Source of the DNA: an uncultured Nitrososphaerales archaeon
GTDB taxonomy: Archaea; Thermoproteota; Nitrososphaeria; Nitrososphaerales; Nitrososphaeraceae
Length of the DNA stretch: 64,000 nucleotides
Direction: 5' to 3'
NCBI GenBank assembly: GCA_963695855.1
Contig: CAVOHZ010000010.1
Location: forward strand, 1,696,001 to 1,760,000
The notes beneath the pieces were generated by a model, which worked only from the letters and a program-made list of their open reading frames with translations, was not told where the DNA came from and searched no databases. This document shows, piece after piece, positions 9,711 to 19,568 of the stretch. The translations under genes were made by a program, and so were the position numbers. Position 1 is the stretch's first letter, and every line of letters begins with the position of its first letter.

Positions 9711-12700
9711 TCACTCAATAAAGTCAAAAAGTGAAGATTGTGAATTTTTGACTATTTCTTTTTCTTTGAAAACATAGCCTAGCTCCATGACAAGTGACTC
9801 TATTCTGCTTGAAAGATAATCGCTCATTTTAAACCTTTTATTTATATCCAATGCGATATGAACATATTTTTCAACAGAATTTCTTGTTACAGTTTGTATT
9901 AGATTGTTTCCGCATCCTAGACATTTACCCATTAAAGGAATTCTTCTATACTTTTCTCCGCACTTAGTACATCTAAATGATTGTGATGAATATGAACGCA
10001 TATTCCCCATAATATCTGGTATTATATGAGTAGTTAAAACCATGGATACAACTTCGTCTGGATCTACAGCATTGATTATATTGGCAGTAGAAATTTGCAT
10101 TTCCAATTTTTCGTTCATTGTAGCTAATGTAGAATATGCACTATGTTGTATCTCAGTCGTCAATACATTAGTATAGTGAGTAAATGAATAATTATAGAAT
10201 TGTAATTCAGAATCAATCCTGTTTTTAATAATTTCTATTTCATTGACTAGACTTTCTGCCTTACTATGTTTAAATGATTTTTCGTATAATTGTAGTGGAT
10301 AATTTGATACAATATCAATATTTAGTGCTTGTCTTTGTACTTCATGGGGTAAAACTATTGGTTGAATTAATAATGGAGCATCCATTAATCCTCCTATCTT
10401 ATCCGAAAGGAATTCTTTTGAGAAGTTCAAACATACATCCATTAATAACATGATAGAATCAGCATCTCCATCACAATCTCTGCGTTTTGCAGAATGCCAT
10501 ATAGGTGATGCTAAACATACTTGCGAATTTGTGTATCCTATAATTCTACCAATAATACCTACAGAAGTATGGGGCGCCAAGCCCACTATGATATGTCCTA
10601 TCAAATCATCTACAGAGGATGCATTATAAAATGGAGAGAGTCCGTATAATTTTACAAGCTCGTTATCTATATATTTAGATACTTTAAGTAAATGTTTTGC
10701 AGTATCTAATGGTATAACAACATCTTGACTAAATATTTCAATCAACTGATCTTCAGAATTTAGATCTTTGCCAAGATGATCTCTTACATATCCTAATTCT
10801 TTTAACTTTCTTGGATTACTCAATATACACTTTGGAATAATATGAGTTAATGGTTCGTTGGTTGCATCATAACGTATTGTGCCATCTTTGAAGGCATAAA
10901 GATTGAATGCCTGTCTTAAAATCCCTTTTTCAATTGGCTCAGCGGATCTATTTTTACCCATTAAAAATTTTACTCCTTTCAATGGTTCTTTAGCTTGAAT
11001 TTGCAATTTTGTTTGTGCTTCTTCTAAAATTTTTCTGAGCGGGTATTTGACTGGGGAATATGTTTTCCCTTCTTTTCCACATTTACTGCATTTATTGTTG
11101 GAATTTTTATGGTCTTTGGAAGTTAAATGAGATATAGGTTCTCTACAGATTTTACAAAGGGTTTTTATTATTGTGTCAGAAAAACATATTCTGCATCTAG
11201 CACCAAGTGAAGGTCTTTTACATTTATCACAATAACGATTTGCAATTTCTGTATAGAGAATTTCTTCTTTTGATGCTTTAATAAGATCTCTAGTAGCTCC
11301 TCCTTTATTTCCAACTGGAAATAAAACATGAACTGGAGGTTTCATTTTCCTCTCTGCTGCCTTTTCTGGACGTCCTACTCGTACCGCAATGGATGAAGCA
11401 AATTTTTGTTTAACAGTTATCCCGGATATTTCAAATACATAATCATGTGTTGATATTTTAGTTGGTAATTGTTGTACATCTATATTGTTTTTATCTTGGT
11501 AAAGTAGTATATACAGAGAATTTACTTGATTCATATCATTCAGAACAATCAATTGTCCATCATTTTTCAATGAATGAACTACCCCTAATCGTTCAAGTAT
11601 ATCCTTTAATTTGCTTTGATAATCAAGTTCAGGTGATTTAAAGTGTTGAATTGCTTGGCCGGTATCAGCAGTGTTGAATCGTTTAACAAGTTCTTTTTGT
11701 AAGAGTAAAAGTTCATCTATCGATATTGACTCCCAATAAAATGAATATTTTGGATGAAGAGCAAGTTTCAAGGATTTACTAAGTTGAAATGCCTCTTTTA
11801 TTGTAGGAATTTCTTTAAAAGGATTATATGCTAGATCTATTAATCTCTGTTTGGTAGGTAACTTATTATTAAAAAGATTATCTTCATTTTCAAAGATTTT
11901 ATTCAATTGGGATTTTAATTCTAACGCCCATAACTCTTCTACATAAGAAGCTGGAAGTAATTTTGCATTATTTTCTAAAAAGTCACCATAACTAATTAGA
12001 ATATCGCCTAAATACAAAATTTTTTCTACTCTTTTTTGGAGTTCTAATGCTTGTTCTATTGTAGAAACATATGTAACAGTTCCATCATCTAGTTTAACCA
12101 ATGGAGGCTCCAATGAATCTACGAGGGCTATTGTAGATGCCTTTCCAGGCGTATCAATTTTAATCTGAGTTCCAACAACTACTGCATAATTTAATAAAAC
12201 TGGAATAACAGGGTGAATTCCAATGGTTGAAAAACCAGTATTATAACAACGACCATATCTCAATCTAAAGCCGCCAATCTTCTTTGACATTGACAACACA
12301 GGTCTTCCGGTTATTACTTCAGACATTCTGTGGTGCACTGTATCATCTTCAGTAACGCCCTCTTTTTGTATAGCTCCTTTTAGATCTTTTAGCCAATCCC
12401 ATCCTTCCAATTTTAAACTATCTATCAATTTTAATAATTTTCTACTTCTTCCTATCAGACCATCATTCATTACTCTGAGCGCTCCTCCTCGTACTCGATC
12501 TGTGTTTATTCTTTTCATACTTCTATGTCCAATTATTTCTACTGGATCGGTATCTACACCATCTAATTCAACTGGTAAATTGCCTATACATTTAATGACA
12601 TCTTCATCTAATGTTTTAAACTGAAAATTCCCAACTTCACGTTCATATATACGTAATTCTTCTACAAATCTTCCTGTTTCATCATCAAAGGAGTTTGCTT

Positions 12701-13265
12701 GATATTTTTCTAGACCTACTACTTTTCTAACATGATCGGCAATTAGCATCGTCAATGCTGCCTCTGTACCACCTGCTGATCTAATAGGTCCTGCAAATGA
12801 TACAGAAAGATATTGACTACGATCAGCATTCATTTTAATTTGAACATCGGCAATTCCTTGTATTGGTGCAACTGTTACTGCTTCAGTAACAATTGCAAGA
12901 CTTACACGTACAGCATTATCCAATCTAGTTCTGAGATCGTCAGTACTATATTCTCCTAGTACAATTTCTTCTGAAATCTTTAATGCAGCTTTTTCCTTTG
13001 TTGTTTGTGATAATAAGGTACGTAATCGTTCTGTGATATCAATATCGTGCATCTTTGCAACCCTGTCTGCCAAATCATAAACTATTTGTGATTCTATAGT
13101 TGTTGTTACATCTATTCCTTGATTACGAGCATGACCTGCTATATCATAAACATTATAGACTGATTCTAGAATAGATGTATGATAACTTTCATAAAATGAT
13201 GGTCTTTTTAACTTTTTTAATTCATGGATTGAGTTTTCATCTAAAAATGAAAAGATATTATTCAT
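9711..13265 (-). CDS. polC: DNA polymerase D large subunit DP2
   Basis: AGPIRSAGGT, GFRLRYGR, FKDGTIRYD, catalytic KRRDCDGDAD, C-terminal zinc fingers; no intein evident. Confidence 0.97.
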   Translation of the reverse strand: MNNIFSFLDENSIHELKKLKRPSFYESYHTSILESVYNVYDIAGHARNQGIDVTTTIESQIVYDLADRVAKMHDIDITERLRTLLSQTTKEKAALKISEEIVLGEYSTDDLRTRLDNAVRVSLAIVTEAVTVAPIQGIADVQIKMNADRSQYLSVSFAGPIRSAGGTEAALTMLIADHVRKVVGLEKYQANSFDDETGRFVEELRIYEREVGNFQFKTLDEDVIKCIGNLPVELDGVDTDPVEIIGHRSMKRINTDRVRGGALRVMNDGLIGRSRKLLKLIDSLKLEGWDWLKDLKGAIQKEGVTEDDTVHHRMSEVITGRPVLSMSKKIGGFRLRYGRCYNTGFSTIGIHPVIPVLLNYAVVVGTQIKIDTPGKASTIALVDSLEPPLVKLDDGTVTYVSTIEQALELQKRVEKILYLGDILISYGDFLENNAKLLPASYVEELWALELKSQLNKIFENEDNLFNNKLPTKQRLIDLAYNPFKEIPTIKEAFQLSKSLKLALHPKYSFYWESISIDELLLLQKELVKRFNTADTGQAIQHFKSPELDYQSKLKDILERLGVVHSLKNDGQLIVLNDMNQVNSLYILLYQDKNNIDVQQLPTKISTHDYVFEISGITVKQKFASSIAVRVGRPEKAAERKMKPPVHVLFPVGNKGGATRDLIKASKEEILYTEIANRYCDKCKRPSLGARCRICFSDTIIKTLCKICREPISHLTSKDHKNSNNKCSKCGKEGKTYSPVKYPLRKILEEAQTKLQIQAKEPLKGVKFLMGKNRSAEPIEKGILRQAFNLYAFKDGTIRYDATNEPLTHIIPKCILSNPRKLKELGYVRDHLGKDLNSEDQLIEIFSQDVVIPLDTAKHLLKVSKYIDNELVKLYGLSPFYNASSVDDLIGHIIVGLAPHTSVGIIGRIIGYTNSQVCLASPIWHSAKRRDCDGDADSIMLLMDVCLNFSKEFLSDKIGGLMDAPLLIQPIVLPHEVQRQALNIDIVSNYPLQLYEKSFKHSKAESLVNEIEIIKNRIDSELQFYNYSFTHYTNVLTTEIQHSAYSTLATMNEKLEMQISTANIINAVDPDEVVSMVLTTHIIPDIMGNMRSYSSQSFRCTKCGEKYRRIPLMGKCLGCGNNLIQTVTRNSVEKYVHIALDINKRFKMSDYLSSRIESLVMELGYVFKEKEIVKNSQSSLFDFIE

Positions 13266-13999
13266 TTTGTGATTGCTTGAATAATTTTGAATAATTTTTT
13301 CTCCCAGTTATCATCATCTTCAATCATTGTTCCAACTACTATAATATCAGCACCAGCATCTGCGATCTTTTTTGCAATTTCTGGACTCCGAATACCACCT
13401 CCTACTATTAGGATTCCTTCATAATATTTTTTAACTGCTGATACCATTTCAGGCGAGACATTCTGATTTGCACCTGAACCTGCTTCAAGATATAGAAATC
13501 TCATACCAAGATATTGAGCAGCTAGTGAGTACATGACAGCTAGATTTAGTTTATTGAATGGAATACCTTTAGCTTGCCCGATGAACCATGCAGTAGTTCC
13601 TTCTCCGATGATTAAATAACCTGTTGGTAGAGCTTCCAATCCAGATTTTTTGACCCCAATTGCACCTAATGCCTGTGCACCAGTTATAAAATAGGGATTT
13701 TCTGAATTCAAAAGTGACATGAACAATATTGCATCGGCATTTGGTGATATTCCTGTGATGTTACCAGGAAATAATATCACAGGAATTTTAATTGACGATT
13801 TTAATTTTGATATCACTTCAGATAATTCGATTTGATTACTAATTGATGAACCGCCAACTAGAATAGCTGAAGCGCCTAGTTCTTCAGCTTTTTTGGTAAT
13901 AGTTAGCGTATCAAGTGTATTTTCTGAATCGATCAAAGGAAAACAAAGGGTTCCCTTTTTTTTCTTTTCACTTAAAATATATTTTTCAATTTTATTCAA
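13262..13999 (-). CDS. Geranylgeranylglyceryl phosphate synthase (PcrB family); start moved to TTG at 13999
   Basis: LID, ILVGGS, ILFPG, FLYLEAGSGA, VGGGIRS, GADIIVVG; 4-bp overlap with DP2. Confidence 0.92.
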   Translation of the reverse strand: MNKIEKYILSEKKKKGTLCFPLIDSENTLDTLTITKKAEELGASAILVGGSSISNQIELSEVISKLKSSIKIPVILFPGNITGISPNADAILFMSLLNSENPYFITGAQALGAIGVKKSGLEALPTGYLIIGEGTTAWFIGQAKGIPFNKLNLAVMYSLAAQYLGMRFLYLEAGSGANQNVSPEMVSAVKKYYEGILIVGGGIRSPEIAKKIADAGADIIVVGTMIEDDDNWEKKLFKIIQAITK

Positions 14000-14196
14000 G
14001 ATTATAATGAGATCGTATAAAGATATTAGCTGGCGTAAAATATGTTTTCGGTTTGAAACTGCTAGAATGTGATAAAATAGTATTAACATGAGTAAATTGA
14101 AAGTACTGAATAAATAAAAGAATCATAAAATTGATATTTTTGATATTTTGATAGGAAATACTATTATGGATAAGCTAGTTTGTTTACTATACAGAT

Positions 14197-14580
14197 ATGT
14201 ATAGTACTAATAGTGATGATAGAAAGAAAAATTCTTATCTTTTTGATAAAATAATTGAGAAATCCTTATTTACAAATAGACAAATTTCAATAATTTATAA
14301 TAAATCAAGTGGCGGTAAAATCCATAAAAGAATCAGTTCAGGTGCATATTACCGCCAAATCAAACAGTGTAGAGCTAAAATTGAATCTTTACTATACAGT
14401 GTGTTGCTATTAAGATCGTTAAATATTATCGATAATAAAACAATGAATGTTATCGAATCTGTAGTTATCCAACTAAATTCACTGTCGAAAAATACCGAGA
14501 ATCACATCACATCAAGTAATATACCAAGTGATGTTATTGATGTGATTGACAAAATAATTAAAAAGTCAATATCAATATGA
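14197..14580 (+). CDS. Hypothetical protein, possible HTH-like DNA-binding fold
   Basis: SLFTNRQI...ISSGAYYRQIKQ pattern; 127-aa ORF divergent from GGGPS. Confidence 0.6.
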   Translation: MYSTNSDDRKKNSYLFDKIIEKSLFTNRQISIIYNKSSGGKIHKRISSGAYYRQIKQCRAKIESLLYSVLLLRSLNIIDNKTMNVIESVVIQLNSLSKNTENHITSSNIPSDVIDVIDKIIKKSISI

Positions 14581-14668
14581 CAGTTATGGTACATGTATCA
14601 CATAGCAAGAGTCCACACTTACATAATCACGTTAGCATTATATAATAGCGTGATATATGTGATATTAA

Positions 14669-15307
14669 TTGGAATTTGATATCTCTTTAATATTAGTCAT
14701 AGCAGTATTTTTTGTTGTTGGTTTCGTTATTTCTCTTTCTGTTAGAACACAGAAAAGAGAATTGACTATTGAGAAAGAAAAAAAAGACGAATTCAATCAT
14801 TACGATATTTTGGAGGCATTAGAAACACGTAAGCAGAATCAGATAGACTATCTTAATAATAAACTTGTGGATGTTTATACAAAACTTGAAAAAATAGAAT
14901 CACAAGTATTATTATTATCGCAATCTATTCTAAAAAACCAGTTTATTCTTGATAAGATAGAAGGGAAAAACCAAGATGTGATATATCACGATAAATCACA
15001 TGATCAAGATAGGCGGGAAAATTTATTCGATATCGCGGAAAATCAAAATTCCACAATCCAATATATTTTAAAACTTTTGTACAATGAACCAAAGACATCT
15101 AATGAGATAAAAAATGCAATTGGTAGAACCCGAGAGCACACATCAAGACTAATGAAAAAATTGTATGAAGTGAATCTTGTTGAAAGGGATGTTAAGCACA
15201 GACCATTTAGATATAGACTTACGGAAGCAGGAAATAAATATATTCATGAAGAGGATCATAGTGATACTAAAAATAATGAATCTGAGTCTCTTGTAAGAAA
15301 TAATTAA
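14669..15307 (+). CDS. Membrane-anchored coiled-coil winged-helix DNA-binding protein
   Basis: N-terminal TM helix (aa ~5-25), central heptad region, C-terminal wHTH (ILKLL...TSNEIKNAIGRTREHTSRLMKKLYEVNLV...YRLTEAG). Confidence 0.8.
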   Translation: MEFDISLILVIAVFFVVGFVISLSVRTQKRELTIEKEKKDEFNHYDILEALETRKQNQIDYLNNKLVDVYTKLEKIESQVLLLSQSILKNQFILDKIEGKNQDVIYHDKSHDQDRRENLFDIAENQNSTIQYILKLLYNEPKTSNEIKNAIGRTREHTSRLMKKLYEVNLVERDVKHRPFRYRLTEAGNKYIHEEDHSDTKNNESESLVRNN

Positions 15308-16350
15308 ATTTTTCATATAACATCATGAAGTTAATCTACTATACCAATAAATAATACGTTTAGCTAATTGAGAGTTATCAGATTTTAGCTAATAGCTATA
15401 AACAATATTACGGTTTTAGTAGACGGTCATATGTATCTGGTTATGCAATGCGTTAGTATTACTTTTGGTCATTTTATACAGCAACCTCTCTTTATGAAAT
15501 TGCTTGGCAGCAAGAGAAAAAATGGTTTATCATCATTATTTTTATGAATTTTGTATGAGTTTTGTTGTTTATATCTATTAGATCAGGTTCTATCAGTAGT
15601 TTTAATAAAATATTCTACGAATCGATCAAAGTCATACAAAAGCAGTACTAACCTATCATATTTTATTTCAAGATGTAATATGTGTGAGGATGTAATCCTG
15701 GACACTGTATTTATGCTATTTGTATTACAAAAGACAGAGATAACATAAATCTTCCAACTATTTCTCCTAATAAGATTGATTCAATCGTTACGTAAAATTT
15801 TATTATTTTATCTTGAAAACAAATTTGAGAATAACATACATTCAATGTTTTATCTAAAAAATACAGAGTAATCACCTGAATGTTTTGGACAAAGGCTTGG
15901 TAGCTATGGTAAAGGTGATAGAGGGGTAGCGTTTTGATATATATACGGTTTTTAATTGGTGTTTGATGGAAAATATAGCTGAAAATGAGCAGATATAAAC
16001 AAAACCTATTTTATCGGACATAACAGCAAAATAACCCTATAATGATAATGATACCATTTTTTCTATTGTTGCGCAAAGTCAAATGCTATTATTGAAGAAT
16101 CTCGTTTAGAATACACTTCTGAAATAGTACTATGGACAGTATTGTTCTATCAGATTCTGGTACATTATAGCTGTAAACAAAGAAATTAACAATCCTCGTA
16201 TAGCATAACACCATGTTGACCGAATTATGACCTTTGCACAAATTAGTTAACAAGATTTTGATATATTATTTTATGAATAAAAACACGTTCAAATTTACTT
16301 TTGTTAATAATATGTTAATTATTAAAAAAATAAAAATACCGTTTACTTCA

Positions 16351-16686
16351 GTCTCCAGTGGAAATAAAGGGGTTGAAAATAGAGCATTAACTAAATTAAC
16401 ATAAATTCAACTTTCCAGTGGAAATAAAGGGGTTGAAAATACAATTTCTTAATTTAATAATGAATATCTGTGATCTTTGTTAATAAAAAGTTTAATGCGG
16501 GACTTTTGGTTGTCTCCCCCTACATTTCTATTCCACAATATAATAAAAAATAAGATTAATAAAACTATATTTGTTTAATAAATTTGTTAATATTATTAGA
16601 TTTAGGGGTTTAAATTTATTTGTTAATAACAAGTTATCAGCAATATACAATATGTTAAAATAATTTCGAAAAGAAAAACAGGGGTG
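16351..16686. promoter_or_regulatory. Chromosomal replication origin (ORB boxes flanking an AT-rich unwinding element)
   Basis: TCCAGTGGAAATAAAGGGGTTGAAAATA at 16354 and 16414 (60 bp apart), AT-rich 16441-16495, inverted degenerate ORB CCCCCTACATTTCTATTCCA at 16516-16535, ORB-like GAAAAACAGGGGT just upstream of cdc6. Confidence 0.88.
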
Positions 16687-16717
16687 TGAGTTATATTTTA
16701 AATGGTGAGAAAATATA

Positions 16718-17941
16718 TTGAGTGACGATTTACTTAATAATATATTTGATGATGCAGTAAAAGGTAAATCATTAATTAAAAATCGTAAAATTCTGACAAT
16801 AGATTATGTACCTGAAAAACTTCAGTTTCGTGATGAAGAAACGATGACTATTGCACAAACATTATCAGTAGCTCTGAAGGGTTCTAGACCATCAAATCTA
16901 TTATTATTTGGAAAACCGGGTACGGGAAAGACTGCTGTTATAAAAAATGTTATTAAAAAATTCACGCAAAAATCATCCTCTCTCGGAATTGAAGTTATAG
17001 TACCATTTGTTAATGCGAAACTAGCAAATACTGCATACAAGGTATTATATGAAATTGCTGAAGAGATGAGTATTAACCAGATCGAAAAAAGAAACCAAGT
17101 TTATTTTACTGGTTTGTCTTTAGGTGAAGCAACTAATAGAATTCTTGATTTCATCCAAAAAAGAAAATTACATGTCATTTTTGTTATCGATGAAATTGAT
17201 TCACTAGTTGATAAAAATGGAGATGATATTCTTTATAATTTTACCAGGGCAAATGAACAGTTTCAAGATTCTGGATTTATTACATTAATCGGAATTTCAA
17301 ACAGTCTTACATTCAAAGATAAATTAGATCCTCGTGTGCGTAGCAGTTTAAGTGAAGAAGAAATTGTATTCAATCCATATAAAATTATTCAGCTGCAAAA
17401 AATACTATCAGAGAGAGTCAAGTTAGCGTTTTCTGATGATGTTGTCACAGATGGAGCTATAAATCTCTGTGCAGCTATTGCAGGAAAAGATAATGGTGAT
17501 GCTAGAAAAGCGATAGATTTACTTAGGGTAGCAGCAGAAATAGCAGAACGAGAAAAAGATTCTAAAATTGATGAAAAATATATTCGGTTGGCTCAAAATA
17601 AAATAGAGAAAGACACAAATTTCGAAGTGATAAAAAATTCAACTACTCATACAAAAATAGTTCTACTGGCAATTACTAAATCCAAAAATGGAAATACTGG
17701 TGAAGTTTATGAGATATATTCTAACTATTGTAAAACAATTGATAACGAGCCTCTCAGTCAACGTAGGATAACTCAAATTATAAGTGAACTTGATCAATTA
17801 GGATTAATCAATACTAATATATTGAATCAAGGTAGATACGGTCGTTCACAGAAAATAAAAATTTCTATTTCTACAGATGCATTAAAAGAAGCCCTAAAAG
17901 AAGATCCATTATTTCTTACATTGATCCATGTTCTTGATTAA
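16718..17941 (+). CDS. cdc6: Orc1/Cdc6 replication initiator
   Basis: Walker A GKPGTGKT, Walker B IDEID, LDPRVRSSL, GDARKAIDLLR, C-terminal wH domain. Confidence 0.96.
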   Translation: MSDDLLNNIFDDAVKGKSLIKNRKILTIDYVPEKLQFRDEETMTIAQTLSVALKGSRPSNLLLFGKPGTGKTAVIKNVIKKFTQKSSSLGIEVIVPFVNAKLANTAYKVLYEIAEEMSINQIEKRNQVYFTGLSLGEATNRILDFIQKRKLHVIFVIDEIDSLVDKNGDDILYNFTRANEQFQDSGFITLIGISNSLTFKDKLDPRVRSSLSEEEIVFNPYKIIQLQKILSERVKLAFSDDVVTDGAINLCAAIAGKDNGDARKAIDLLRVAAEIAEREKDSKIDEKYIRLAQNKIEKDTNFEVIKNSTTHTKIVLLAITKSKNGNTGEVYEIYSNYCKTIDNEPLSQRRITQIISELDQLGLINTNILNQGRYGRSQKIKISISTDALKEALKEDPLFLTLIHVLD

Positions 17942-19568
17942 AATTGATCTGAAAAGGACGAAGAGTAGCAAGATTAACTAAAATTGCGATCCCACATGTA
18001 GGCATTATTCCCATAGTTTGTTGAAAAGGAGTTTGATCCTGCCATGTACCAGAATTAATGATTAATGTACCACGATAATTTTGTACATCCATAACATGAA
18101 CATGTCCTGAATGAAATACATCAGGTACCTCATTTATTACCATCATATCTTCTAATTCAGGAGCAATTGGTGTTCTTTGTCCATAAATTGGAGATAAATG
18201 TCTTGCTTTTAATAATATTTTCATTGCCTCCGCAGGATTTGCGTAGCTTAAACCAGGTATTGTAGCAATGATATCATCTAATCCCTGTCCATGATACATT
18301 AAAATTTTAACTCCCTCAAGTTCAATAAAACTAGGATTCCCCAGCATCGTAAAATTTTCAAATGAATACAATCTTGGACAATCGTTTTTAGGAACTGCAG
18401 GTTGTGGTAACGCTCTTCTTCCAAGATCATGGTTTCCAGGAATAATAAAAACTTGAATTCTCTTAGGAATTTGTTCTAATAATTTTGTTAAGTGACTCAT
18501 TTGTTTAAATGTATTACTATACTTTAATTCTTTGTCTTGATTGGGAAATATTCCTACACCATCTATTAAATCACCACCAATACATAAAAATTTTATTTTA
18601 GATACTATTTCATCATCAGATGAATTCAGCCATTTTAAAAAACGTAAAAAATCTGTTTCTTTGAAATACTTACTTCCAACATGAAGATCTGAAATTAAAA
18701 CAGCATATGATTCTCTTTTTCCTTTATTTGGGATGTGATCTGGGATATCTGGAGAAACAACATTTTTTATAATATGATTATTTCCCTTGTTTTCAATTTC
18801 TACCATCACCATTTGATCAAGGGTCAATTTAGAAACAAGTTTTATTGTCTCATCAGTTACTGCTAATGTATTAATAATTCCAGTTTGATCGTCTATTGTT
18901 AATTCTGTGCTATTTCTTTTCGATCTCTTTGACATTACCAAACCTGCAATAACTGAAGAATATCCACCCAAAGAGGCATTATTATTTTCTATTTTTTTAT
19001 CATTATATTCTGTGTTTAAATTATTATTTTGTTTTTTTTGATTATTACTTTTTTTTACAAACGCTATCTTATTAATACGTTTACTATCTGGTCTGGTTGA
19101 TAAAATTTTTAACGATTTGATAAAACGACTTTTAAAAAGTGAAGTGTAACCGTTTATTCCTTCACCTGAGTTAATATAGTCAGTAGAATCAAAAATTATT
19201 TTATAGGAATCCTTTAAATCAATATTTTCAGTTGTTGAATTTATAGATTGATATACTGATGAGCTAGAAACCACATGGCGAGTATGAAATTTTTCTATAA
19301 TCTCTTGATCATTTTTTACCAAATTATTCTGACCAACAGCGATACAAAAAATTCTGATATCATCTGTACCAATAATAGTATTACTATCATTTTTTTTCTT
19401 GTAATTTACAACTTGTTGAATAACATTCATTTTATTTGAATCAATATCTTTTAAAAGCGTAAATGCATCAGGATGTATTTGGTAGCCATTAGCAGTAATA
19501 AATGATAATACATTTGAAATTTCTTTTTGTAAAGACAATTGTAAGAACTTAGGATGTACCAAACTCAT
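17916..19568 (-). CDS. polB: DNA polymerase D small subunit DP1 (proofreading exonuclease)
   Basis: Calcineurin-like motifs ISDLHVGS, GDLIDG, PGNHD, YHG, HSGHVH, NSGTWQ; OB fold. Confidence 0.95.
   Translation of the reverse strand: MSLVHPKFLQLSLQKEISNVLSFITANGYQIHPDAFTLLKDIDSNKMNVIQQVVNYKKKNDSNTIIGTDDIRIFCIAVGQNNLVKNDQEIIEKFHTRHVVSSSSVYQSINSTTENIDLKDSYKIIFDSTDYINSGEGINGYTSLFKSRFIKSLKILSTRPDSKRINKIAFVKKSNNQKKQNNNLNTEYNDKKIENNNASLGGYSSVIAGLVMSKRSKRNSTELTIDDQTGIINTLAVTDETIKLVSKLTLDQMVMVEIENKGNNHIIKNVVSPDIPDHIPNKGKRESYAVLISDLHVGSKYFKETDFLRFLKWLNSSDDEIVSKIKFLCIGGDLIDGVGIFPNQDKELKYSNTFKQMSHLTKLLEQIPKRIQVFIIPGNHDLGRRALPQPAVPKNDCPRLYSFENFTMLGNPSFIELEGVKILMYHGQGLDDIIATIPGLSYANPAEAMKILLKARHLSPIYGQRTPIAPELEDMMVINEVPDVFHSGHVHVMDVQNYRGTLIINSGTWQDQTPFQQTMGIMPTCGIAILVNLATLRPFQINFNQEHGSM

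Follow-up and report, generated by a model that had tools for sequence, protein, structure and literature searches.

Known systems and their relation to the locus

RacA of Bacillus subtilis combines a winged helix with a coiled coil, and links the origin region to the cell envelope by binding repeated ram sites near the origin. It is a soluble protein that reaches the membrane via DivIVA and has its role in sporulation, and the ram sites are spread over hundreds of kb. In centromeres of the ParR/parC type, the gene for the binding protein has its promoter overlapped by an array of repeats, which serves as both operator and centromere. The parS arrays of pSM19035, composed of WATCACW heptads, are described as overlapping promoters (PMC9499535). 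RicO of S. aureus is described as bridging origin-proximal sites and the membrane (bioRxiv 10.64898/2026.03.06.710092). Among archaea, the SegAB system of Sulfolobus includes a site-specific DNA-binding protein, SegB, that has sites at its own operon and for which a role in segregation is proposed (PMC7617429).

We analyzed a 64,000-bp stretch of a genome of the class Nitrososphaeria (C10:1696001-1760000; hereafter, the window), in which ORF2, encoding a predicted membrane-anchored winged-helix protein, lies within a dense array of ATCAC/GTGAT sites. Two features of tethering proteins are found at this locus: a predicted DNA-binding domain and a predicted membrane element occur in one polypeptide, and the sites are near the origin. 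RicO, as it is described, is likewise a single protein that recognizes specific DNA sequences through one domain and binds the membrane through another element. However, RicO is a bacterial protein whose DNA-binding domain is N-terminal and whose membrane element is a C-terminal amphipathic helix. In ORF2, the membrane-spanning helix comes first and the winged helix is at the C-terminus; moreover, the function of RicO was established experimentally, while that of ORF2 is deduced here. Origin-membrane tethers are a class defined by function, not by homology. In comparison with RacA and ram, ORF2 carries its own anchor, and the sites are packed into roughly 2 kb around its gene.

Like the parS arrays that are reported to be bound by Omega (ParB), the array consists of short non-palindromic repeats, both direct and inverted, located over the promoter of the presumed binder. 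The Omega repeats are described as both operator and centromere, and the heptad WATCACW holds the same ATCAC core, which is most likely a coincidence. Omega differs from ORF2, however, in that it is described as a plasmid-encoded ribbon-helix-helix protein with a ParA ATPase partner and contiguous repeats; the clusters considered here are dispersed, some of them within genes, and the window has no match to a ParA gene. SegB, according to the description available (PMC7617429), also differs in that it works with the ParA-like SegA encoded alongside, and ORF2 has in addition a predicted membrane anchor. Thus, among the features of ParABS and SegAB systems, repeated sites at or near the ORF2 gene are present, but an adjacent ParA/SegA-type ATPase gene is absent from the window, where neither PF01656 nor PF13614 has a match. 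The matches to these two models in the genome are at C10:103279-105264, 163204, 553962 and 815083, as well as on C3 and C4.

The array of ATCAC/GTGAT sites

The original prediction listed 11 ATCAC/GTGAT sites in positions 14501-14999. Each listed position is indeed ATCAC or GTGAT, but a 12th site, at 14899, had been overlooked. The resulting count of 12 compares with a mean of 0.79 per 500 bp in the genome (5619 sites in 3,548,682 bp) and 1.24 per 500 bp in the window (159 sites). Two reported palindromes, GTGATATATCAC at 14978-14989 and ATCACG-N17-CGTGAT at 14626-14654, are present as written. It had been suggested that the density be checked genome-wide, and this check places the stretch at the genome's extreme: 12 sites per 500 bp is the maximum over 3.55 Mb, and the sole tie is a tandem repeat with a 90-bp period (C10:108162), so that 14501-14999 is the densest non-repeat 500-bp stretch. 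An anchored Poisson scan gave a genome-wide probability for such a cluster of ~5e-6 at the genome's rate of sites and 5e-4 at the window's rate. At least three sites within 40 bp occur in 16 places in the genome, four of which are at this locus.

The array extends beyond the coordinates first reported, and in total comprises about 19 half-sites over ~2 kb, in a single copy, forming three strong clusters and one weak one. In this genome, the whole array is on one side of the ORB repeats, at a distance of 1.4-3.4 kb (see below). The outermost cluster (13007-13092), with three GTGAT sites (13007, 13033 and 13088), is in the 5' part of the gene for the large subunit of PolD (PolD-L). It is weaker than any other part of the array. 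The two closest relatives have the cluster at an identical offset, two more have part of it, and other families have clusters at similar offsets. Four sites (13744, 13755, 13776 and 13812) form a cluster inside pcrB (13744-13816).

The central cluster (14501-14663) has eight sites, and covers the 3' end of ORF1, the spacer between ORF1 and ORF2 and the ORF2 promoter. Within it, ATCACG-N17-CGTGAT brackets a TATA-like box, and a CGTGAT/TGTGAT pair is spaced 9 bp apart. The box, TTATATAA (14638-14645, + strand), was read from the sequence, and an A/T-rich box at this position is also present in the other loci of the genus. Given the usual archaeal distance between TATA box and start, it is probably the promoter of ORF2. 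Because it is only ~27 nt upstream of the TTG start, the ORF2 mRNA would be leaderless or nearly so.

The last cluster (14899-14999; sites at 14899, 14978, 14985 and 14995, including the palindrome GTGATATATCAC) is inside ORF2, largely where a linker is encoded. The sites encode V-I, Y-H and K-S-H here, and [ND]-I-T (ATC ACx) in most congeners. The three-site core at 14978-14999 falls in a segment with pLDDT<50 in the AF2 model (residues 94-124), and the site at 14899 encodes residues 77-79, inside a long helix. Each of the clusters is ~180-350 bp downstream of a start codon (of PolD-L, pcrB, ORF1 and ORF2), a placement that might suggest a role in regulating transcription and not in tethering.

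The half-site consensus is T-GTGAT-A-T, with a preference for T at -1 (72% versus 35% in the background), A at +5 and T at +6. Half-sites are arranged in direct, inverted and everted orientations at variable spacing. Genome-wide, the distribution of spacings between neighboring sites is flat, near the expected 8.9 per spacing. The word TGTGATAT is not over-represented in the genome (209 occurrences versus a median of 232 for words of equal composition), nor are TGTGAT and TGTGATA. Because such single words are not over-represented, the signal is one of clustering and not of a regulon. Other small clusters in the genome, considered as a possible regulon, were rejected, as they resemble coding or low-complexity sequence.

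The origin and neighboring genes

Two identical repeats, TCCAGTGGAAATAAAGGGG, are located at 16354 and 16414 (16354-16432, + strand), upstream of the initiator gene cdc6/orc1 (16718-17941, + strand; Pfam Cdc6_C E 1.6e-24, Cdc6_lid E 2e-23, and AAA). We take these repeats to be of the ORB type; two matches were found, compared with none in 100 shuffles. Their presence upstream of cdc6 supports a replication origin at this location. The GC skew has no clear switch at the scale of the window. The ORB concept is described in PMC4010727. The region of these repeats is sparse in array sites, with three scattered ones between 15308 and 16717, and the epicenter of the array is the ORF2 promoter.

The pcrB gene (13262-14089, - strand; GGGP synthase family, Pfam PcrB E 2.5e-55) adjoins ORF1 and ORF2 in all 11 genomes of the order. 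ORF1 (14197-14580, + strand) encodes a helical protein of 127 aa with a possible HTH resembling LuxR or sigma region 4, and is kept upstream of ORF2 across the order. It had been called HTH-like. This designation stands in that the AF2 model is a five-helix protein (mean pLDDT 76), although the match to an HTH is itself weak: VIA-align gives Z values of 4-5.5 to LuxR, NarL and sigma-r4 HTHs over residues 19-70. The putative recognition helix has the invariant residues G49, R53 and Q57. ORF1 belongs to no family in Pfam or NCBIfam, and Foldseek found no match in the PDB at E<=0.001. A sequence profile retrieved only designed armadillo repeats from the PDB, which we judged spurious. In the ESM Atlas, its relatives are hypothetical proteins of Nitrososphaerota, plus a lead of 0.83 to a cluster in which 14% of members have Sigma70_r4. 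ORF1 may be a co-factor or a second DNA-binding protein; a predicted complex of ORF2 with ORF1 received a score of 0.00 and a mark of 0.32, which speaks neither for nor against an interaction.

The ORF2 protein and its recognition helix

ORF2 (14669-15307, + strand) encodes 212 aa from its TTG start, and matches the Pfam models HTH_27 (E 8.4e-6) and TrmB (E 3.6e-5). Its initial description as a protein with a transmembrane segment, a coiled coil and a winged helix agrees with the AF2 model, in which a membrane helix and a long helix (5-96) are followed by a disordered segment (94-124) and a winged helix (125-190). The N-terminal helix is hydrophobic over residues ~5-25 and is followed by basic residues; by the positive-inside rule, the C-terminal winged helix is predicted to be inside the cell. 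Since only about four residues precede the membrane helix, there is no domain outside. Contigs from metatranscriptomes (RNA libraries of two studies) align to ORF2, e.g., to 14708-15299 at ~92% identity, and to pcrB; these contigs are from relatives, may include DNA and have no visible ends, and the absence of ORF1 coverage among them is uninformative.

The recognition helix of ORF2 is T-R-E-H-T-S-R-L-M-K, of which R-E-H-x-x-R is kept in 37 of 37 orthologues. A search of the PDB with the domain as a single sequence was too weak, and only a profile of the domain was informative. With a profile of 28 orthologous domains, the best matches are Vfr and CRP/CAP, at modest E-values (7.7e-5 to 1.5e-3) and over a short stretch of ~32 residues. 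The alignments to Vfr pair SREHtaRllK of the ORF2 family with SREMVGRVLK. In E. coli CRP, Arg180, Glu181 and Arg185 are reported to read the TGTGA half-site (PMC2677863, PMC11253593), and the spacing of this base-contacting triad is found in the C-terminal HTH of ORF2. ORF2 thus has in common with CRP and Vfr a recognition helix of the form S-R-E-x-x-x-R-x-L-K with the same spacing of contacts, and the array has the TGTGA core. Because the R-E-x-x-x-R helix aligns with that of Vfr and CRP, and E. coli CRP reads TGTGA, ORF2 is the likely binder of the array. Unlike CRP and Vfr, ORF2 has another order of domains, its half-sites lack the TGTGA-N6-TCACA geometry, and no cyclic-nucleotide-binding domain was matched in Pfam at E up to 1; the model has only helices ahead of the winged helix.

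The TrmB model, PF01978, matches 25 of the 28 orthologous domains (best E 4.6e-12); the domain from the window scores 26.1 bits, with a cut-off of 25.6, and the full-length protein falls just below this, at 24.0. The TrmB proteins TrmBL1/Tgr are described as binding TATCAC-N5-GTGATA (PMC4158304), and so have the same half-site word, TATCAC/GTGATA, in addition to being archaeal proteins with a winged helix and a coiled coil. However, TrmB proteins sense sugars and are soluble; their winged helix is at the N-terminus and is followed by a coiled coil and a C-terminal effector domain that binds the sugar. In ORF2 this order is reversed, a membrane helix is present, and there is no effector domain. 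Regulators of the ToxR/CadC type combine a cytoplasmic OmpR-type winged helix, one membrane helix and an extracytoplasmic sensor; ORF2 has no such sensor, and Pfam gives no match to Trans_reg_C. Foldseek with ORF2 retrieved generic winged helices of the MarR, ArsR and PadR types, and the centromere protein AspA of pNOB8, at ranks 33 and 45, was given no special weight. With a profile of full-length ORF2, the PDB matches were mostly coiled coils of viral spike heptad repeats, which we judged to be compositional.

Conservation of the locus

The original prediction called for a check of conservation, and the gene pair, the clusters and the linkage to cdc6 and the origin proved to be kept throughout the order and in most of the class. 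The gene order PolD-L, PcrB, ORF1, ORF2, ORB origin, Cdc6 and PolD small subunit (PolD-S) is found in 11 of 11 genomes of the order, and in 10 of 12 loci in other orders of the class. The gap from ORF2 to cdc6 is ~0.5 kb in most congeners. ORF2 is present in 38 of 41 genomes in the sample of the order and in 71 of 81 in that of the class. In one family of the class, ORF2 was found in none of six genomes, each of which is 91-99% complete, so ORF2 is not indispensable to the class. It is important to consider that the compared genomes are relatives, and these counts therefore overstate the independent support.

Cluster positions are sharply kept among the 18 loci of the genus. Relative to the ORF2 start, and over a background of 0.3-1 site per 500 bp, the pcrB cluster has 61 sites in bins -1000 to -800, the central cluster 106 in bins -200 to 0 and the linker cluster 80 in bins +200 to +400. 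The divergent promoter region between pcrB and ORF1, in the three bins from -600 to -300, has six sites in all 18 loci together. Just upstream of the ORF2 start is the pair GTGAT-N4-GTGAT in 16 of the 18 loci, and GTGAT-N4-GTGAC in the other two. This pair, between the TATA-like box and the start, is the best conserved element. Dense clusters also occur in other families (e.g., 16 sites in 530 bp in L021 and 13 sites in 600 bp in L036), and promoter sites in non-coding DNA are found even in families whose proteins are 22-29% identical. In a family of another order (f21; loci L034 and L037), just one or two GTGAT sites are left, at the ORF2 promoter. These two nearly array-less loci are also the only ones without an adjacent pcrB.

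Selection on DNA within coding sequences

Many sites are inside genes, and a check of constraint at synonymous sites had been proposed. The sites within four coding sequences are kept by such selection. ORF2 has 137 sites where 38.9 are expected from protein sequence and codon usage, and ORF1 has 83 where 18.6 are expected, i.e., an excess of 3.5-4.5 fold; this expectation used the codon usage of genome G000 on genomes of 34-60% GC. Permutation of codons within each gene, which is independent of that choice, leads to expectations of 57.1 (ORF2) and 37.5 (ORF1), and the excess is still ~2.2-2.4 fold. By the former expectation, pcrB has 25 sites versus 7.1, and PolD-L has a mild overall excess (84 versus 56.7), while the control genes are at expectation (Cdc6, 24 versus 20.1; PolD-S, 22 versus 22.8). 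All 18 pcrB genes spell Pro-Val-Ile as cct/ccc GTG ATa, with a GTG codon that accounts for just 10% of Val codons. From species to species the sites shift reading frame and, at a given place, can be on either strand; in ORF1 and ORF2 they fall in parts of low confidence (pLDDT<50). Given the excess of sites, the different frames and the rare codons, with control genes at expectation, we conclude that selection acts on the DNA.

It might nonetheless be supposed that the cluster has no function at the level of DNA and simply results from amino-acid composition, codon bias or common ancestry. Codon pairs for Ile-Thr, Tyr-His, Ser-His and Val-Ile naturally give ATCAC, and the genomes compared are related. 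However, neither measure of the excess, the neighboring controls, the fixed rare codons, nor the recurrence of one word at a given place, in different frames and on either strand, is expected from such causes, and the promoter sites of distant families are in non-coding DNA. We consider this explanation extremely improbable.

Possible functions of the array

We tentatively propose that the ORF2 protein recognizes the array, acts as a repressor at its own promoter and, next to oriC, assembles into a complex attached to the membrane; this is plausible, though it falls short of probable. The array would be the binding target of ORF2, whose N-terminal helix would anchor it in the membrane and whose long helix would mediate dimerization. 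The dimer would then present two CRP/TrmB-like winged helices on flexible linkers, and this flexibility is our proposed explanation for the direct, inverted and everted half-sites with variable spacing. Two of the sites are flanked by the TATA-like box and the TTG start, and protein bound there would repress the ORF2 gene and tie the abundance of its product to the number of arrays. When all clusters are occupied, a membrane-attached nucleoprotein complex would keep the origin region at the cell envelope. Such a combination of operator and tether would work on the principle of centromeres that coincide in part with their own promoters. The lack of a ParA/SegA-type match in the window and the family in which ORF2 was not found count against this proposal. 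According to a broader claim, which we regard as unlikely, ORF1, ORF2 and the TGTGAT array are the device for origin anchoring and segregation of the whole class Nitrososphaeria, in effect an archaeal centromere with an integral-membrane binder. New origins would in that case be caught at the envelope without a ParA-type motor, and then be parted by growth of the membrane or passed to the Cdv division machinery.

Confinement of binding to one autoregulatory operator had been named at the outset as a result that would speak against a tether. The sites are in fact distributed over three to four clusters, ~2 kb and four coding sequences. However, the two sites between TATA-like box and start look like an operator for autorepression, and one family keeps only that element, so autoregulation is at least part of the function and maybe all of it. 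The ancestral core may even have been plain autoregulation, since L034 and L037 retain just the promoter sites. ORF2, alone or with ORF1, might thus be an ordinary repressor of its own promoter; this is the strongest competing explanation, though it strikes us as somewhat unlikely as the whole one. The extra clusters would then serve cooperative or looping repression, or act as roadblocks that tune pcrB, PolD-L and ORF1; the anchor might report the state of the membrane, tuning the lipid-synthesis gene pcrB, and the closeness to oriC would be inherited gene order without function. The best conserved GTGAT pair is located at the classical place for an archaeal repressor, the sole element retained in f21 is this one, the clusters are ~180-350 bp into four genes, and pcrB is a conserved neighbor that has a cluster, while loci without it adjacent have almost no array. 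Against this, some 19 selected sites over 2 kb in four coding sequences far exceed what known auto-operators need, the divergent pcrB-ORF1 promoter region is poor in sites, ORF2 has essentially no extracellular part with which to sense, and the linkage to cdc6 and ORB is retained across the whole class.

That ancient and tight linkage could instead mean that the array serves to control replication and that its reader is not ORF2, a mere neighbor, but some other protein, such as ORF1, Cdc6/Orc1 or a nucleoid protein. An element of this kind might sequester or titrate the initiator, or serve in fork or helicase egress. ORF1 is equally conserved, with its three invariant residues and weakly LuxR/sigma-r4-like fold, and accessory origin motifs bound by proteins other than the initiator are described in archaea, namely ucm/UBP in Sulfolobus (PMC12141716). 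However, the motif is what the recognition helix of ORF2 is predicted to read, the array is centered on the ORF2 promoter and not on the sparsely populated ORB region, and the ORB repeats differ in sequence from the array's sites. We therefore consider this possibility quite unlikely.

Implications

A single origin has been mapped in Nitrosopumilus (PMC4010727). In its treatment of DNA segregation in archaea, a 2024 review of the cell cycle refers to SegAB and ParAB-like genes, and, for Nitrosopumilus, to the lengths of cell-cycle phases (PMC7617429). A full-text literature search for a membrane-anchored winged-helix protein or a segregation system at a thaumarchaeal origin returned nothing relevant.

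The locus thus provides a concrete candidate, with a defined protein, a site of 6-8 bp and three residues predicted to read that site. The array is the single predicted target in the genome, and it adjoins the origin. Because this candidate protein-binding array is maintained within the coding sequences of essential genes (pcrB and PolD), it also bears on the subject of overlapping codes. Together, the TGTGAT array and the membrane-anchored ORF2 may hold the origin at the cell membrane, and the candidate accordingly bears on how chromosomes are positioned and separated in the class Nitrososphaeria, represented here by an archaeon of the ammonia-oxidizer type.

A motif array beside the origin

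The original prediction placed a gene pair, ORF1 and ORF2, next to the replication origin and within a dense cluster of ATCAC/GTGAT sites, and proposed that these form a tethering or segregation system. In this genome (3.55 Mb, GC roughly 31%), the order of genes is the PolD large subunit (PolD-L; 9711-13265, minus strand), the GGGP synthase family gene pcrB (13262-14089, minus), ORF1 (14197-14580, plus), ORF2 (14669-15307, plus), a non-coding stretch of 1.4 kb (15308-16717), cdc6/orc1 (16718-17941, plus) and the PolD small subunit (PolD-S; 17916-19568, minus). The non-coding stretch contains two identical ORB-type repeats (16354 and 16414), as compared with no matches in 100 shuffles, and the origin assignment is therefore sound.

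All 11 sites originally listed are present, as are both palindromes, exactly as described, and we add a twelfth site at 14899. The resulting 12 sites per 500 bp are the maximum anywhere in the genome, whose 5619 sites correspond to 0.79 per 500 bp, and are equalled only by one tandem repeat. An anchored Poisson scan gives ~5e-6 genome-wide, and 5e-4 at the window's higher site rate. At least three sites fall within 40 bp at 16 places in the genome, of which four are in this locus. The array extends beyond the region first proposed: one of these four tight clusters is inside pcrB (13744-13816), and a weaker, three-site cluster is inside PolD-L (13007-13092).

The equally motif-rich tandem repeat (C10:108162-108726, outside the window) has a 90-bp period with ATCAC twice per unit, and resembles repetitive coding sequence. 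Counted from the start codon, the clusters in the locus (13007-14999) all fall ~180-350 bp inside their genes (PolD-L, +177 to +258; pcrB, +273 to +345; ORF1, +304 to +349; ORF2, +230 to +330), and their centres are ~740, 800 and 410 bp apart. Between ORF2 and cdc6, this genome and its two closest relatives have a spacer of ~1.4 kb, and most congeners one of just ~0.5 kb; an insertion specific to this lineage, placed between the array and the ORB repeats, may explain the long form. The spacer here contains an inverted repeat of 20 nt with 90% complementarity (15507-15526 and 16053-16072).

Conservation of the genes and clusters

ORF2 has matches in 23 of 24 other genomes of the genus, in 38 of 41 genomes sampled from the order and in 71 of 81 sampled from the class; none was found in the six genomes of one family in the class, each 91-99% complete. 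The proposed linkage to cdc6 holds in each of the 11 genomes of the order from which larger stretches were fetched: ORF2 lies between pcrB and cdc6. Most of these stretches also have PolD-L and PolD-S hits on the outer sides of these two genes, the exceptions being those of locus L027 and genome G032. Between pcrB and ORF2, tblastn detects ORF1 in nine of the 11 genomes; the other two have a readable ORF1-like frame there. In two single-contig genomes, the contig begins with cdc6 and ends with the pair. In other orders, 10 of 12 loci again have ORF2 flanked by PolD-L (as a rule with pcrB) and cdc6/PolD-S.

The clusters also hold their positions. When sites in 18 loci of the genus were binned per 100 bp relative to the ORF2 start, 61 fell in the two bins from -1000 to -800, 106 in the two from -200 to 0 and 80 in the two from +200 to +400, while nearly all remaining bins contained 0-4 and a few reached 9. 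Other families of the order, where ORF2 identity is only 21-29%, have the same three-part layout, with the palindromes GTGATATCAC and GTGATatATCAC among their sites. Several other orders have it as well, e.g., 13 sites in 600 bp at locus L036. In family f21, just one or two sites are left, at the ORF2 promoter.

In another order, locus L043 (genome G041) has GTGATGTGAT at the start of ORF2 and the triple GTGATGTGATGTGAT directly after its stop codon, so that sites bracket the gene. In family f19 (L039 and L044), the densest 600-bp window (8 sites) is inside PolD-L, ~3 kb upstream of ORF2, and not at ORF2.

Selection on the DNA

We compared site counts in coding sequence with those expected when synonymous codons are resampled with this genome's codon usage. 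ORF2 orthologues (25 loci) contain 137 sites versus 38.9 expected, ORF1 orthologues (23 loci) 83 versus 18.6, and pcrB 25 versus 7.1. PolD-L has 84 versus 56.7, while Cdc6 (24 versus 20.1) and PolD-S (22 versus 22.8) are near expectation. Permuting each gene's own codons, a conservative control, raises the expectation to 57.1 for ORF2 and 37.5 for ORF1. In this genome, Val is encoded by GTG in only 10% of cases and Ile by ATC in only 14%; the Pro-Val-Ile codons of pcrB read GTG AT in all 18 loci. In the ORF2 linker the motif word encodes V-I, Y-H and K-S-H in this genome, on both strands, and in most congeners [ND]-I-T. Within genes, most sites coincide with stretches of low confidence and poor conservation (in ORF1, residues 101-108 and the beginning of the last helix; in ORF2, residues 94-124). 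Selection therefore acts on the DNA rather than the protein, and because sites occur on both strands, a signal in the RNA is less likely.

ORF2 as the candidate binder

The ORF2 model starts with a hydrophobic N-terminal helix that continues as a long helix (5-96), followed by a disordered linker and, at residues 125-190, a winged helix modelled with confidence (pLDDT >90). Public annotation calls its homologues 'helix-turn-helix domain-containing protein' or 'predicted transcriptional regulator', and those that are near-identical are labelled Nitrososphaeraceae archaeon. Comparison of folds gives MarR/ArsR/PadR matches of a generic kind. The recognition helix follows the pattern [ST]-R-E-H-x-x-R-x-x-K without exception in the 37 orthologues, drawn from across the class. 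By domain profile, the best solved relatives are Vfr and CRP/CAP (E 7.7e-5 to 1.5e-3), and the Vfr alignments place R-E-H-x-x-R opposite R-E-M-V-G-R. According to excerpts of two papers, E. coli CRP reads its T-G-T-G-A half-site with Arg180, Glu181 and Arg185, and one of them predicts that these residues suffice for specificity in the CRP family (PMC2677863, PMC11253593). The array consensus is T-GTGAT-A-T (T at -1, 72% versus 35% genome-wide; A at +5, 61% versus 33%; T at +6, 68% versus 33%), so that TGTGA is part of its sites. Among 28 orthologous domains, 25 are matched by the Pfam TrmB model and 19 by HTH_Crp_2; the TrmB-family regulators TrmBL1/Tgr bind TATCAC-N5-GTGATA, in the excerpt available (PMC4158304). 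ORF2 belongs to neither family; it lacks the effector domains of both and its domain order is reversed. Family searches assigned ORF1 to no family, and its LuxR/sigma-region-4-like match is weak (Z 4-5.5).

The ORF2 promoter has a TATA-like box (14638-14645) with the start codon ~27 nt downstream, a site pair (14649-14663) between the two and ATCACG (14626) just upstream of the box. Leaving aside the truncated loci L012 and L018, 16 of 18 loci have GTGAT-N4-GTGAT downstream of an A/T-rich TATA-like box and ahead of the TTG start, and the two closest relatives have GTGAT-N4-GTGAC instead. Both ORF2 (14669) and cdc6 (16718) have an apparent TTG start, which for ORF2 is kept in 18 of 18 genus loci. 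Taken with the distance to the box, this start suggests a leaderless, weakly translated mRNA. Contigs of RNA libraries from soil and rhizosphere (two studies; relatives with 90-99% identity) map to ORF2 and pcrB, within 13200-16800.

Possible functions

Our tentative reading, a little short of evenly probable, is that the array is both an operator and a membrane tether beside oriC, with ORF2 as the putative binder. Against a tether speak the lack of any match to a ParA-type gene within the window, the family without ORF2 and the family that keeps the promoter element alone. The position of each cluster, some 180-350 bp inside a gene (PolD-L, pcrB, ORF1, ORF2), could mean transcriptional control; we consider plain transcriptional regulation rather doubtful. 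With the lipid gene pcrB next to the pair, a further possible model is a membrane-state regulator acting on lipid synthesis. It is distinctly unlikely that another protein binds the array or that the array is a replication-control element, quite improbable that some further explanation applies, and extremely improbable that the array has no function.

RacA is among the closest functional precedents for an operator and tether. So are RicO, for a membrane-attached origin complex (bioRxiv 10.64898/2026.03.06.710092), and the WATCACW arrays of pSM19035, which are centromere-operators (PMC9499535), both as excerpted. Full-text searches and review passages contained no description of the pair or array.

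Half-sites are found directly repeated at distances of 5, 6 or 9 bp, inverted with 0-2 bp separating the GTGAT and ATCAC words, and everted in pairs spaced 24 bp. Not all of these arrangements could be used by a rigid dimer such as CRP, whereas two winged helices on flexible linkers of 30-70 residues, under a membrane-anchored coiled coil, could use them. Because sites flank the TATA-like box, their occupancy should block initiation, and ORF2 would repress itself. Single sites are not over-represented across the genome and no second array was found in it, which would leave the 2-kb stretch beside oriC as the only target that a multivalent binder fixed in the membrane could bind with high avidity. 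The expected outcome, as originally proposed, would be a membrane-attached complex close to the origin.
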